Shown piece by piece: positions 9,489-42,531 of a stretch of DNA of 64,000 nucleotides (position 1 is the first letter of the stretch; each line of letters opens with the position of its first letter). The translations under genes and the position numbers were made by a program. Source of the stretch: Nitrosopumilaceae archaeon (GTDB taxonomy: Archaea; Thermoproteota; Nitrososphaeria; Nitrososphaerales; Nitrosopumilaceae); the NCBI GenBank assembly GCA_965207375.1, contig CBDBMG010000003.1, positions 448,001 to 512,000 of the forward strand. Direction: 5' to 3'. Below the pieces are notes generated by a model. The model did no database searches, had not been told where the DNA came from, and worked only from the letters and a program-made list of their open reading frames with translations.

Positions 9489-9575
9489 GGGCCTCTTTGA
9501 GGCCTTGCAAAAATTCTATATAGCATACCATTTTTTGTGTAATTCACTTTGTCAAGGTTTAGTCTCTTCTTTTAT
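9489..9575 (-). ncRNA. Variable-segment mini-gene, subfamily A; TATA box disrupted by an insertion
   Basis: Variable segment 9515-9551 (37 nt) between the CCTTGA linker and ATTTTTGCAAGGCCTCAAAGAGGCC. The upstream motif is displaced to about 10680-10692. Confidence 0.55.
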
Positions 9576-10669
9576 CATTAAGTACGGTAGTACTTAATAG
9601 TAGGATTGGTAAAAAATTGTATGGCTTCGGGAAAATTTAGCGCTTTAAAAATCAACCTTGCAATAGACTTTACCCGAAAAAACCAGCTGGAATGCATTGG
9701 TAAGGCTGTAATGATGCTGTACCTTGGTTAAACGAAACGACAAGTCGAATATTTCGACCTACAGCCAACTTTGAAAATTTCGAAATCCACCTGTATTTCG
9801 TCTGACAGCCAGCCAGCCAGCCTGCCAGCCAGCCAGCCTGCCGTAAGACCGGGTTGCGCTAGGTGTAGGGCTCCAGAAATTTCACACAATAAAGGTAATG
9901 GCGGCGCATTTACGAAAATATTATTCCGAAGACGATTTACCCACTGCGCCATGGCGATTCCCTTTATCCTTCATTCCTTTCCTTGTTCTTCTTTATTCCT
10001 TAGCAAGGTGCGAATTTCACCGAAGGTGACGATAGCCTGTAACTGCTTCTGCTTATTGCGTCACACAAAAACCTGACTTGCACGTGATATAATTAGTTAC
10101 AGTGGCACGATGTTTTAGCGTGTACTTTATTACATCGTGAACTTCGAGATTATAGCCTTGGACAAATAGCTTTTGCTGTTTTTCGAGCGTTATATTTACT
10201 ATCACACAGCTGCTTTGCCATGTCAGCGCGTTGTTAACAAGCGCCTGTAAACAAGCATAATTATTACGTAAGCGCCTGTAACATTTTGTGCGCCTGCTAA
10301 AAGATTATTGAATGCTTAGCATGTATAAAAAGTAAACAAACTAGAATGATAAAAAATTAAAAAATTAAAAAGTAAGTAGGGATTGAACTTTGGATTCAAT
10401 AGTGCTACAAAAAGTAAGGAAACAAGGAATAAGATTTTGGGATGAGAGAACATTCTGGCATGAGATAATTTATAAAAGTTTAATCCCTACTTTTGGCAAA
10501 CCTACTGGAAGTGAGCCAAAAGTAGGGATTAAACTTTTATAAATTATCTCATGCCAGAATGTTCTCTCGTCCCAAAATCTTATTCCTTGTTTCCTTACTT
10601 TTTGTAGCACTATTGAATCCAAAGTTCAATCCCTACTTACTTTTTAAATTTTTAATTTTTTATCATTCT
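9574..10669 (+). mobile_element. Fold-back element family 1, copy 1
   Basis: 5' short hairpin TTAAGTAC-GGTA-GTACTTAA, short (GCCA)n, and a near-perfect terminal palindrome at 10343-10669. Confidence 0.8.
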
Positions 10670-11601
10670 TATCTCTACATATTGTGGGTTTTCATTTTTA
10701 CAATGTTTTACTCACAGCTACATTTAGTAAACTTATTAATAGTGGGTAGAACTTCAAACATTGATAATGTAAGGTGATGGCCACTGTTGCCCATATAAGA
10801 GATTTGATTGTGGGTTTAAGTTTTACATAATTTTTGTACTACCAAGTGATGAACTTTGGAAAAGTAATGTTTTGTTCCCTCCAAATTGCCTCTCAAATTT
10901 CAGTAAAAGTTTATAATCACCAGATCTAATAAAGTACAGCTCACATCAACCTTTTCCTTCTCTGATATCACCATCAAGCCAAACTTCGCTTTGCAAGACT
11001 TGACTCAAGGTTATTATTTCAAAATTATAAAACCCAGTAGCTAACCTGATGATTAATCAAGCACTACTCTCAGCATTTCCACTTATGTTGAGTAATCGGG
11101 TGCCTGGCAGGTGTTAGCCAATCCCGTGGCTAATCCACAGTAGCTGACATCACATATCACGCAAATTACTAATGGCTCAGATATTGCTAATGGATGATGA
11201 AATCGACTACCGTACTTTTAGTAGTGATTTCAAGTGTAAGCATCTTAGTACTAAGAAACTTGTCTCTTCGTAACACCGGCATACCATTTTCTAATTGCAG
11301 TAACAAGTCACATAGTGCACCACCTTATGTTTGTGTGTTGATAGCTAGCTGGCACTAATTGTTATTCAGTGAGCCTATCAGTTGTGTTGTTGATTTATGT
11401 GTTGATCACGACACCGACATCCCTACCATTAGAAATTTACAGCTACATACTCCGGATTTGCGCCTAGTGCAGGATTGCCGGTTTGGGGGGTCTAGAGACA
11501 AATTCTGTACTTGGCTTAGCCCCGTGCTATATTGTCTCTTGTACTGTATTTACCATACACACTTGCAGTGGTGCTTTAACTAATACAGATGGCATAGTTA
11601 T

Positions 11602-11719
11602 AGGCCCCTTGAGGTCTTCCAAAAATTTTAATTTAGCATGTTAACCAATGATACTTGTTAAGATCAAGGTTGCTCCAGCTTTTCTTTTATAAACACATGT
11701 TATATTTGATTATGGGTTT
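11602..11719 (-). ncRNA. Variable-segment mini-gene, subfamily B
   Basis: Minus: AAACCCATAATCAAAT..TATAAAAGAAAAGCTGGAGCAACCTTGA-[37 nt, 11627-11663]-ATTTTTGGAAGACCTCAAGGGGCCT. Confidence 0.55.
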
Positions 11720-12095
11720 GAATATTTTAATTCACTTCACAATATAGCTAGCCATTGTAAACCATTCATCCATAACTTTCAGATAGCGCTATTGAGAGTT
11801 TCTAATTAACACATTATACATACACATTATACATACACCTCCACTTTAAACATATCAGTGTTGCTCATATGTATTTGATTGTGACTTCAAGTATTTAAAT
11901 TGTGGTACAGGGTGGCCTACTGTATTTTTGCGGACTGGACTCAAACAGGTGCAGAATATGGAATAACGACACTTTTCAGGATTTTTCATTTATTCTCTAA
12001 AAATTTTAGTTTCCAAGCAGTCTTCCATACTAGTAACCAAACTTACACACATGCACATAGCTGTTAAACACAAACCGAATTTAATTGTGACATCC

Positions 12096-12371
12096 ACACA
12101 CACACACACACACACACACACACACACACACACACACACACACACACACACACACACACACACACACACACACACACACACACACACACACACACACACA
12201 CACACACACACACACACACACACACACACACACACACACACACACACACACACACACACACACACACACACACACACACACACACACACACACACACACA
12301 CACACACACACACACACACACACACACACACACACACACACACACACACACACACACACACACGCACACAC
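12096..12371. repeat. (CA)n microsatellite, about 270 bp
   Basis: Seen directly. Confidence 0.97.
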
Positions 12372-39999: not shown

Positions 40000-40003
40000 A
40001 TTA

Positions 40004-40071
40004 TAGGCCCCTCGAGACCTTCCCAAAAATTTTAATTCATAAAATGCGTATGTTTTAGGTTTTCCTTTTAT
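40004..40071 (-). ncRNA. Variable-segment mini-gene, subfamily C, shortened
   Basis: TATA, T5 and hairpin AGGTCT-CGAG-GGGCCT are retained. Confidence 0.4.
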
Positions 40072-40547
40072 AAAAGTGACCATATTTGGGAAAATGTGCA
40101 TATGTAGTTCACACATCTGATTTTTCTCATTCAAAGATTCATAAAATCTGATAGGAACAGTACACAGATCTGTAATGATAGAGGAATGGTAGCCCCATAA
40201 ACCCTGCAAGTGTCAAGTCTATCCACGTATGCCAATATGTAACTTAGACAAATAGATTTTGCAATTGTATTTTGCTATAATACAGCTACTTTTCTATTGT
40301 TAACAAGCGCCTGTAAACAAGCATAATTAAGTAGGTTCCTTCAGTCATATTGTAGCATGTGATTCCATATTTGTGATCATATTTGCGAAAACATTTATAC
40401 GTAGTTCACACATCCAGTTTTTCAAATTTGAAGATTCATAAATCTATTAAGGATGAACCTCATTTCAGGCATATGGCAAGTTTAAGATGATAAAGTAACT
40501 ACACACATTACACAATATTAAGAGGTAGAGCTACATTTAGTAAACTT

Positions 40548-41556
40548 ATCATTAAGTATGGTAGTACTTAATAGTAGGGATTGGCGGGAAATCGTATGGT
40601 TTCCAGAAAAATTCGAGCTTTAAAAATTTACCTTGCAATAGACTTTACCCGAAAAACCGGCTGGAATGCATTGGTAAGGCTGAAATGATGCTGTACCTTG
40701 GTTAAACGAAGCAACAAGTTGAATATTTCGATCTACAGCCAACTTTGAAAATTTCGAAATTCACCTGTATTTCGTCTGCCAGCAAGCCAGCCATAAGACC
40801 GGGTTGCGCTAGGTGTAGGGCTCCAGAAATTTCACACGATAAAGGTAATGGCGGCGGATTTACGAAAATGTTGTTCCGAGGACGATTTACTCACTGCACC
40901 ATGGCGATTCCTTTTATCCTTCATTCCCTTCCTTGTTCCTCTATATTCCTTTAGCAAGGTGCGAATCTCACCAAAGGTGACAATAGCCTGTAACGGCTAC
41001 TACTTATTACATTACACAAAAGCCTGGCTTGTACGTGATATAATCAGTTTAATACAGTGGCACAATCGTGAAAGATTATAGCCTTGGACAAATAGCTTTT
41101 GTGTTTTTCGAGCATTATTTGCTATCACACTGCTATCACACAGCTGCTTTGTCATGTAAGTGTGTTGTTAACAAGCGCCTGTAAACAAGCATAATTATTA
41201 CGTAAGTGCCTGTAACATTTTGTGAACTTGCTGAAAGATTATCATGAATGCTTAGCATGTATAAAAAGCAAACAAACTAGAATGATAAAAAATTAAAAAT
41301 TCAAATGGTAAGTAGGGATTGAATTCAATAGTGCTACAAAAAGTAAGGAAACAAGGAATAAGATTTTGGGACGAGAGAACATTCTGGCATGAGATAATTT
41401 ATAAAAGTTAATCCCTACTTTGGCAAACCTACTACTGAAGTGAGCCAAAAGTAGGGATTAAACTAGGGATAAAGGTTGATTATTAAAGCACAAAATTTCC
41501 GGAAGCCATACGATTTCCCACCGATCCCTACTATTCAGCACACTGTACTTAATGAT
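40548..41556 (+). mobile_element. Fold-back element family 1, copy 3
   Basis: Homologous body; the hairpin is truncated after the loop and followed by an inverted copy of the element's left end. Confidence 0.8.
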
Positions 41557-42414
41557 AAAAATTACTTAAAATTTGGTTACACTACAAAATCACTAAAATT
41601 TGTCTGCACTAGTAATATCTATATAGTCTGTGGTAAGCTATTTTGGTAGGTAAGTTTTGACCAATCTGTTAATTTTGCCAATAATTTTAATCCCTCCAAT
41701 TAGTGATGGGAGGTATTTCAATTATTCAATATGGGTAAGGTATGAGTTCATACTGAACATCATTTTATATACGTAATGTATTCCATTATTGTAATGTAAA
41801 AATCATACTATTATGCAGTGTAGATTTTATATTAATATGGGTGTAAAAATACATACAAAGATTTTAAGCAGACTACTAGCATAAACTAGTTGTGTGCAGT
41901 CATGTAAATGTCATGACCTGATTGATGACCGACTTTAAAACTGGTTAATCAGTTTCATAACGGGTTGACCAATTTTGAAATGGTATAACTATATTATTAG
42001 AGTATCCTTTTAAAGGGATAGCTATAGGTATTGTACAGTAGTAACTAGTCTTGTGGGGCCACACCCTCTTCTTTGCATGTTGACTAGCATTAAACGCCCT
42101 GCCTAAAGATGTAAGGTAACAGGAAAGCTGACCAACTGACGGCTAGTGCAGGCTTGGCTGAACCATACAGTATTTTTCATCAGACAAATCAAAGCTGACT
42201 GTCCTATCACATTGATTTCATCAGTTACAAAATGAATTCACCAATATTAAACTGGATCAATGGTCAATAACTAATGACCCAATTTCACTTTAAAACAAAT
42301 ATTTAGCCAGTTTTAAAACCAGATGGCACTGTAACAAAAATATTACAATGGCGATAATTTACTATACCGTGGAATGAACTAATTACCATGGTAACAATTG
42401 TTTTGATCATTGTG

Positions 42415-42531
42415 GGCCCTTTTCAGGCCTTGCAAAAATTCAATATGTTTACAACCACCATGTATATGGCCATTTAGTCAAGGTTTATCCTCTTCTTTTA
42501 TATCTCAACGTGACATTTAATTGTGGGTTTT
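42415..42531 (-). ncRNA. Variable-segment mini-gene, subfamily A
   Basis: Variable segment 42440-42477 (38 nt); TATA at 42496-42502. Confidence 0.55.

Follow-up and report, generated by a model that had tools for sequence, protein, structure and literature searches.

Why should a segment of about 37 nt differ almost completely among copies of an element whose flanking sequences remain alignable over hundreds of bases? The question is raised by a 64,000-nt stretch of DNA (C4:448001–512000 of a four-contig assembly, C1–C4; hereafter the window), in which seven copies of one element, designated subfamily A, carry such a variable core. The original prediction termed the pattern spacer-like and proposed strong diversifying selection, targeted mutagenesis or templated replacement confined to the 5' arm of a putative transcript. 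We found that the contrast in divergence between core and flanks is real and statistically solid. In the best reading of the sequence, each copy is its own putative transcription unit of the small nuclear RNA (snRNA) type, the core being its 5' part from about the predicted start; this placement, which the original prediction had also made, fits the promoter logic laid out below. On balance, we lean towards the units being a family of RNAs of the Sm small nuclear ribonucleoprotein (snRNP) type, i.e., snRNA-like, with copy-specific 5' ends that would act by pairing.

A sharply bounded variable core

The subfamily A copies of the window lie at 9507, 17104, 17414, 23499, 28950 (on the opposite strand), 37750 and 42432, and an eighth was found outside it, about 100 kb away at C4:350.5 kb. 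Their recurrence is far beyond chance: in the window, GCAAAAAT followed by TCAAGG at a gap of 30–45 nt occurs five times as against 0.02 expected, and, with up to three mismatches, both flank motifs occur seven times each, as against 0.03 and 0 expected. In the copies with contiguous flanks, identity over 15-nt windows falls to 0.24–0.42 at core positions 5–34, compared to 0.76–0.86 in the windows next to the core and up to 1.00 in nearby ones. Further outward, identity is mostly 0.8–1.0 for 200–300 nt in the subsets of copies that share these flanks; a second dip there is due to indels. Overall, the flanks of subfamily A copies are 0.82–0.99 identical, and the outer flanks, over 149–227 aligned nt, 0.88–0.94. 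Thus, on sliding-window alignment the core diverges far beyond its flanks, and the divergence is sharply bounded.

The cores of all eight copies (the seven in the window and the one at 350 kb) were also compared pairwise. Among the 28 resulting pairs, 22 score 0.46–0.65, the level of the shuffled-core baseline (0.54 ± 0.06). The remaining six are related, including 17104–23499 at 0.81, which bears out the earlier remark that cores 17112–17147 and 23507–23542 visibly resemble each other, and 17104–350 kb at 0.86; the 350 kb core is 0.83–0.86 identical to both of these cores. Residual similarity among the A cores also takes the form of shared GTGAAT, AAATGG and GTGCAC motifs, and comparison of cores across subfamilies revealed no similarity beyond the trio of 17104, 23499 and 350 kb.

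The measurements of the original prediction were reproduced to the nucleotide for the seven A cores (37, 36, 37, 36, 40, 37 and 38 nt) and for the pair of subfamily B, which is identical over 43 of 43 nt. Three of its descriptions needed narrowing. The stretch that is really unalignable spans about 27–30 nt rather than about 37, since the first ~6 and the last ~5 nt are semi-conserved. The near-constant core length is a feature of subfamily A (36–40 nt), whereas beyond it the segment, taken from 24 nt after the TATA start to the Sm site, ranges over 25–53 nt. Finally, easily aligned flanks of 150–300 bp exist for some copies and not for 9507, which carries a 1.1-kb insertion, or for 17104 and 17414, which form a partial tandem. 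Reads from four DNA runs on 31900–39250 yielded short repeat-laden contigs only, which are uninformative on haplotypes; no differences were listed in core 37762–37798.

Eukaryotic DNA in a mixed assembly

The coding density of the four contigs separates them into two kinds. C1 (2.16 Mb) has a bacterial density, with 78% of its length under open frames of at least 150 aa, as opposed to merely 11–19% in C2–C4 (2.14 Mb). The contig of the window, at 15%, also bears microsatellites and retroelements, and the window itself contains microsatellites, a 48-bp satellite and an integrase fragment. Pfam searches with 10 long open reading frames (ORFs) of C2–C4 recovered mostly transposon domains (Gypsy-type, Helitron, PIF1 and piggyBac-type), along with IgGFc-binding and MYND domains. 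The low coding density, the transposons and the microsatellites mark the DNA of the window as eukaryotic; indeed, the window and C2–C4 as a whole are eukaryotic DNA that was binned together with a bacterial genome. Thus, an assembly filed as one prokaryotic genome is mixed, and about 2.1 Mb of it is host DNA. The eukaryote behind C2–C4 is probably an animal. As a lead only, the look-alikes of the IgGFc-binding ORF in a protein atlas are eukaryotic, with Mollusca the commonest.

A family of units with a shared putative promoter, an Sm-like site and a stem-loop

A profile search with the A copies (30 nhmmer hits in total) added some 20 loci on C3 and C4 that have diverged much more strongly. Across the 2.1 Mb of eukaryotic sequence, 28 loci combine a proximal box, a TATA element and an Sm-like site, 24 of them with distinct cores, and about ten more are partial or variant. 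The units follow one layout. A proximal box, AAACCCACAATYAAAT (core CCCACAAT), is followed by TATAWAAG (TATAAAAG in subfamily A), which starts 26 nt after CCACAAT, a spacing kept in 18 of the 23 parsable members and across unrelated subfamilies. An initiator-like conserved TAAAYNTTRAYAAA comes 15–28 nt after the TATA start and precedes the non-conserved, unstructured segment of 25–53 nt. This segment is closed by AAUUUUUG(G/C)AAG, with a stem-loop of 5–10 bp directly after it. In keeping with this layout, the information profile of the 24 distinct units shows conservation at −33 to −12, 0 to 9 and +15 to +28, and then none after +28 until 4 nt before the Sm-like site. The presence of that site in all 24 is by construction of the search; it is also the most conserved downstream element of the profile.

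The eukaryotic contigs (2.14 Mb) contain 61 instances of the combination of box and TATA, compared to three in the 2.16-Mb bacterial contig, and the combination also stands upstream of short conserved units that are unrelated to the family. We therefore regard it as a putative general promoter module, which fixes the predicted direction of transcription. Downstream of the units, the only tendency shared throughout is A-richness at 26–44 nt from the start of the Sm-like site, and a search there for a 3' box motif common to the whole family found none. Subfamilies A and C share CCCACAWT..YAAAAC downstream. Immediately behind the stem-loop, both in subfamily A (e.g., 23470–23482) and in subfamily C on C3 and C4, a further direct copy of the box core, CCCACAAT (in subfamily C CCCACATT), precedes ..YAAAAC; this recurrence may be a 3'-end signal or a coincidence.

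The conserved site AAUUUUUG(G/C)AAG matches the Sm-binding consensus RAU(3–6)GR, of the spliceosomal type. Starting from a fixed anchor behind it, 15 of 23 members form at least five consecutive pairs, compared to 1.6 (maximum 5) when the tails are shuffled. The stems differ between subfamilies with both sides changed (GGCCU/AGGCC, GGCUU/AAGCC, AGGUU/GACCU and AGAAU/AUUCU), and the median fold energy is −8.3 kcal/mol, whereas 27 sites elsewhere in the genome that share the 12-mer give −3.9 (one-sided p = 0.027). The predicted stem-loop is, by these compensatory changes, conserved as structure and not as sequence. Since AAUUUUUGG together with a terminal hairpin is the signature of Sm-class snRNAs, we tentatively assign the predicted RNA to this class; it would be about 60–80 nt long and, like U7 snRNA or a short spliced-leader or SmY RNA, would begin with a single-stranded stretch, continue with the Sm core and close with a hairpin.

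The contrast first noticed in subfamily A recurs in subfamilies C, D and E, where the promoter is 0.82–0.97 identical and the Sm site with the hairpin 0.76–1.00, as opposed to 0.42–0.68 for the core. Hypervariability is thus a property of the family and not of one cluster. The cores show no excess secondary structure relative to shuffled sequences (mean z = −0.20, p = 0.34).

Two further kinds of unit lie behind the CCCACAAT promoter. At C2:250854(−), C2:360303(−), C2:427601(−) and C4:777630(+), the box and TATA stand ahead of a different conserved unit of about 125 nt, which has no internal TTTT, ends in ...GATGATCAAAACGTTTT and has no Rfam match at E ≤ 1. The other kind, at C2:250547(−), 250677(−), 359996(−) and 360126(−) and at C4:777807(+), has a 5' part with ATACTTAC, then GCATTTGGATC, a shorter Sm-like site, followed by the hairpin CAAAGCT..AGCTTTG, and is possibly a sister to the family analysed here. 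Outside the assembly, the box-and-TATA pattern matched public metagenome contigs 38 times, always singly and never upstream of an Sm site, so that these are chance matches, and the full-unit pattern in public genome contigs gave only two bacterial chance matches and no relatives.

Candidate identities of the units

Several results weigh against an Sm-class identity. A proximal box with a TATA element marks RNA polymerase III genes in well-studied animals, and, given this promoter form, the polymerase would stop at the T5 inside the Sm-like site. Fewer than five clean pairs form in 8 of the 23 members, the A copies at 17104 and 37750 having no usable stem on the gene strand. By fold energy the hairpins have no strand bias (12 fold better on the gene strand and 10 on the other, p = 0.65), which leaves the strand assignment to the promoter logic and the Sm consensus. 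Rfam searches of the window gave no hit at gathering thresholds, and lax scans of an A copy, of other promoter-bearing loci and of 20 member loci gave nothing convincing save a weak response from SmY. U1, U2, U5, U6 and U7 genes, sought in the assembly as a check on the promoter box, were absent from it, a result that covers these 2.1 Mb only. The cores themselves look neutral, with a base composition equal to the genomic background, and no complementary target was found for them within the 2.1 Mb, a small part of the host genome.

Each of the competing identities accounts for part of this picture. The units could be spliced-leader (SL) RNA genes, the core being a hypervariable leader exon trans-spliced to mRNAs and the Sm site and hairpin belonging to the intron part of the SL RNA. 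The architecture is the same: a snRNA-type promoter, a short RNA with an Sm site and then a stem-loop, and clustered multi-copy genes. There is also reported precedent for hypervariable leaders on a conserved SL RNA frame in Heterodera, Globodera and Trichinella (PMC6362198) and for a leader of ~37 bp with many sequence variants in a glass sponge, which its authors ascribed to sequencing error (PMC10282587). What such genes should have, and the units do not, is a conserved splice donor. Across the 24 cores we found no conserved GU at a fixed distance from either the start or the Sm site; a GT does lie 6 nt before the Sm site in seven of them, but one core has none at all. GT within the last 26 nt (19 of 24 cores, compared to 17.8 ± 2.0 in shuffles; p = 0.37) and donor-like motifs (7 cores, compared to 4.8 ± 1.9; p = 0.17) are both at the shuffled level. 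Moreover, the 5' part is without the stem-loop that usually holds the donor. We therefore regard the SL identity as improbable. The same grade applies to polymerase III mini-genes with a U6-type external promoter, in which the RNA would be the variable segment only, 30–50 nt long and ending in a U-run, and the apparent Sm site its terminator. Box and TATA at fixed spacing are the classical type-3 layout, and past the start no element is better conserved than the T5 run. The cores contain TTTT slightly less often than expected (3 of 24, as against 6.5 ± 1.9; P = 0.055), and the unit of ~125 nt behind the same promoter runs without TTTT until it ends in GTTTT. However, a stem-loop with compensatory changes at a fixed offset after the T-run would have no role if transcription stopped before it, the U-run and the G(G/C)AAG behind it together make up a textbook Sm consensus, and three cores do contain TTTT.

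It is very improbable that the units are not genes at all but pieces of a mobile element or segmental duplication with a mutation- or recombination-prone centre. The region around the subfamily A copies is indeed a mosaic of repeats, insertions and transposon remains, and several copies are broken; yet subfamilies that are otherwise dissimilar keep three promoter elements at fixed spacing, an Sm-like site and a hairpin of changing sequence, which argues for selection on function. The units are also without terminal inverted repeats, and the profile search returned no promoter-less dispersed copies. An array of clustered regularly interspaced short palindromic repeats (CRISPR) was rejected: the contig is eukaryotic, the units are 0.3–9 kb apart, and the two sides of a core are different sequences and not one direct repeat. 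The label spacer-like is for this reason misleading, as every core belongs to a unit with a promoter and an RNA scaffold of its own, and all but one of the seven genes are on the minus strand. The Sm-class reading remains the one we favour; the units most likely form a new, large family of Sm-class snRNA-like genes with hypervariable 5' ends. A literature search for such a family found none, which does not show that none is in print.

Origin of the contrast between core and flanks

Left and right flanks tell different histories. Between the seven A copies that remain once 9507, with its broken promoter side, is excluded, similarity over the left 120 nt is uncorrelated with that over the right 75 nt (Mantel r = −0.30), and left flank, core and right flank give a copy different nearest neighbours. 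In some pairs one flank is 0.94–0.99 identical and the other 0.78–0.85; the left flank of 23499, for example, is 0.94 identical to that of 42432, while its right flank is 0.99 identical to that of 17414 and 0.85 to that of 42432. Such unrelated relationships on the two sides indicate that flanks have been exchanged between copies, by recombination or gene conversion with breakpoints at the core. The exchange homogenises the flanks and thereby exaggerates the contrast with the core.

Could exchange be the whole explanation? The core might be unconstrained and the flanks repeatedly homogenised, with conversion tracts halting at the heterologous core, such that neither selection nor mutagenesis is needed. 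Besides the signs of exchange just described, the background composition and lack of structure of the cores are in line with this, as is the young B pair, whose 43-nt cores are unchanged where the local divergence is about 3%. Against it, the outer flanks, which are presumably unconstrained too, retain their identity while the cores have reached the random level, and the tracts must, throughout at least four subfamilies and all their lineages, have spared ~30 nt, which is hard to picture without selection against homogenising. We consider this explanation possible though doubtful, as flank exchange alone leaves that escape unexplained; to account for it, one would have to invoke selection that favours distinct 5' ends, a locally raised mutation rate or an old heterology at which conversion tracts are blocked.

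Of the three causes first proposed, the data do not separate selection and mutagenesis from each other or from neutral drift, and templated replacement is unsupported. No core matches elsewhere in the 2.1 Mb or matches the core of another subfamily: hits of at least 30 bits outside the family in C2–C4 number six, as against 114 for a five-fold shuffled set (about 23 expected). The near-constant length of the A cores and their residual similarity fit substitution from a common ancestor better than foreign replacement. Constant hypermutation is not seen in the B pair, which argues, as a single pair only, against such a process at a ten-fold rate. The converse idea, that the identical B cores reflect purifying selection, was dropped, as the absence of change in 43 nt is not significant at that local divergence. 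A gradient of divergence across the transcribed region, as expected of transcription-associated mutagenesis, was sought and is not clear; the dip is sharp.

A further pair of related sequences exists outside the window: C4:1–54047 and C3:198507–255794 are the same sequence in opposite orientation, at 99.5–100% identity and with one inverted 2-kb block, and represent a haplotig or assembly duplicate. Family units within it are identical or 1–2 bases apart and hence uninformative on core change.

A possible mechanism and its implications

The genes lie in local clusters of tandem and segmental duplicates. Their promoter and their part with Sm site and hairpin stay similar, and copies swap flanks by recombination or gene conversion. 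The 5' segment, in contrast, would not be held to one sequence and would take up ordinary substitutions and small indels until paralogues no longer align. The architecture suggests that this segment would give an Sm snRNP its specificity by base-pairing, each gene addressing a different RNA. To our knowledge, every Sm-class RNA described so far works by pairing a single-stranded end to another RNA, and those we know of (U1, U2, U4, U5, U7, U11, U12 and the SL RNAs) are few, each with one conserved business end.

One might go further and envisage natural 'programmable' Sm snRNPs: dozens to thousands of U7-like RNAs with a common Sm core and hairpin, distinguished solely by single-stranded antisense ends of 25–50 nt that selection keeps different, and forming an RNA-guided nuclear repertoire. 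We deem this stronger version rather unlikely. If it were true, the targets might be, e.g., pre-mRNAs, transposon transcripts or viruses, and, if the density of 24 distinct units per 2.1 Mb were typical, thousands would be expected in a genome of a few hundred Mb. The family could represent a novel way of targeting RNA-guided complexes in animal nuclei or an extreme case of leader diversification. Small RNA genes of the predicted kind, combined with exchange between tandem copies, can give eukaryotic DNA a sharp 'spacer' pattern reminiscent of CRISPR.

Individual units and neighbouring elements

The exemplar of subfamily A is the minus-strand unit at 23478–23598, with the CCACAAT box at ~23587–23593, TATAAAAG at ~23560–23567, a core of 36 nt at 23507–23542, the Sm-like AATTTTTGCAAG at 23496–23507 and the stem-loop at ~23482–23496. 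The sole plus-strand unit of the subfamily, at 28864–28990, has its box at 28869, TATA at 28895, core at 28920–28959 (40 nt) and Sm-like site at 28959–28970, followed by the stem-loop GGCCTC/GAGGCC. All other subfamily A units are on the minus strand. That at 37733–37854 (core 37762–37798, 37 nt) has a perfect AAUUUUUGG and a stem-loop that does not fold on the gene strand, and that at 42408–42530 (core 42440–42477, 38 nt) has a U·G pair in its stem-loop on the gene strand. The unit at 17085–17203 (core 17112–17147, 36 nt) combines an intact promoter with a degenerate stem-loop; the one at 17392–17514 (core 17422–17458, 37 nt) has the upstream box CCCACGAT and the stem-loop GGCTTC/GAAGCC, a compensatory variant. 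These two, spanning 17104–17464 and 310 nt apart, are a partial tandem duplication, with unrelated cores (0.59) and with the stem-loop missing from the first.

The remaining A unit, at 9490–9576 (core 9515–9551, 37 nt), keeps an intact Sm-like site and the stem-loop GGCCTC/GAGGCC. Its TATA is degenerate (TGATAAAAG) and its upstream box has been displaced by an insertion at 9572–10680; this copy is hence probably dead. The insertion, which sits between the TATA region and the upstream box, is a repeated element of ~1.1 kb that also occurs at 40546–41464 and 22466–23317.

The other units of the family in the window are likewise on the minus strand. The subfamily B unit at 11590–11720 and its twin at 43480–43612 have identical cores. 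A further unit at 35790–35915 has the box CCCATAAT, then TATAAAAGAG, a core of its own and AATTTTTGGAAG. Two variants have no recognisable upstream box: one at 19945–20044, with TATAAAAAGG, a core, ATTTTTGGGAAG and the stem-loop GGTCTT/GGGGCC, and one at 39997–40073, with TTATAAAAGG, a short core, ATTTTTGGGAAG and the stem-loop GGTCTC/GGGGCC. A truncated version of the 19945–20044 kind, at 25935–25991, has only 23 nt from TATA to the Sm-like site.

In subfamily A only, a second hairpin, TACYGTGG..CCAYRGTA, is found ~22 nt beyond the first (e.g., 17347–17375 and 42365–42393). Two copies show a compensatory T>C/A>G change in it, and its G·U pair exists only on the plus strand of the window, opposite to the predicted gene. 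Elsewhere in the window, a frame with an integrase core at 46298–46873 (+) (rva_4, E = 5e-71) is adjoined by one with weak helix-turn-helix matches at 45543–46076 (+), a transposon remnant. The 48-bp satellite occupies 51734–61094, with ~170 copies at 91–94% match and then more degenerate ones, and explains a plateau in GC and AT skew at 52–62 kb.

Comparison with known systems

CRISPR arrays resemble the family in having variable segments of constant length between conserved sequence. They differ in that the family's units are kilobases apart, each with its own promoter, and no acquisition machinery or matching protospacers were seen in the 2.1 Mb. A eukaryotic parallel is offered by the mini-genes for the 21U-RNAs of Caenorhabditis elegans, its PIWI-interacting RNAs: very many tiny autonomous units that share a small upstream motif resembling those of snRNA promoters, while each transcribes a sequence of its own. 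Unlike the predicted RNAs, 21U-RNAs have neither Sm site nor hairpin and are 21 nt long after processing.

Among Rfam models, only that of the nematode SmY RNAs (RF01844) responds to the family. In 3 of 20 member loci it matches AAUUUUUGGA and, equally spaced, the 3' stem, with the strand and the span that were predicted. At 22.5, 19.6 and 19.3 bits, the scores fall well short of the cut-off (39); the alignments leave out the 5' stem-loop of SmY, and SmY sequences are conserved and not hypervariable. SL RNAs, including the hypervariable ones of cyst nematodes and Trichinella, resemble the family in genomic organisation. They come from clustered snRNA-type genes with an Sm site and then a hairpin, present in some species in many copies with different 5' segments on a conserved frame, and these segments, at 20–45 nt, are comparable in length to those of the family (PMC6362198). 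The family differs from them in having neither a conserved splice donor nor a 5' stem-loop.

In its RNA layout the family resembles U7 snRNA, which is ~60–70 nt long and has a single-stranded antisense 5' end, an Sm-type site and one terminal stem-loop. The likeness extends to the engineered 'U7 SmOPT' carriers, whose Sm site has the consensus form AAUUUUUGG and whose 5' end can be freely exchanged. For the family, the single-stranded 5' end, the Sm site and the terminal stem-loop are predicted from its sequence. The U7 model (RF00066) scores at best 18 bits anywhere in the assembly, which is chance level against a cut-off of 34, with no match at these units, and a lax scan of the unit at 37650–37900 gave no U7 match. 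The Sm site of the family is canonical and not of the U7-specific kind. Finally, whereas U7 has one conserved anti-histone sequence, the family comprises dozens of genes with different 5' ends.

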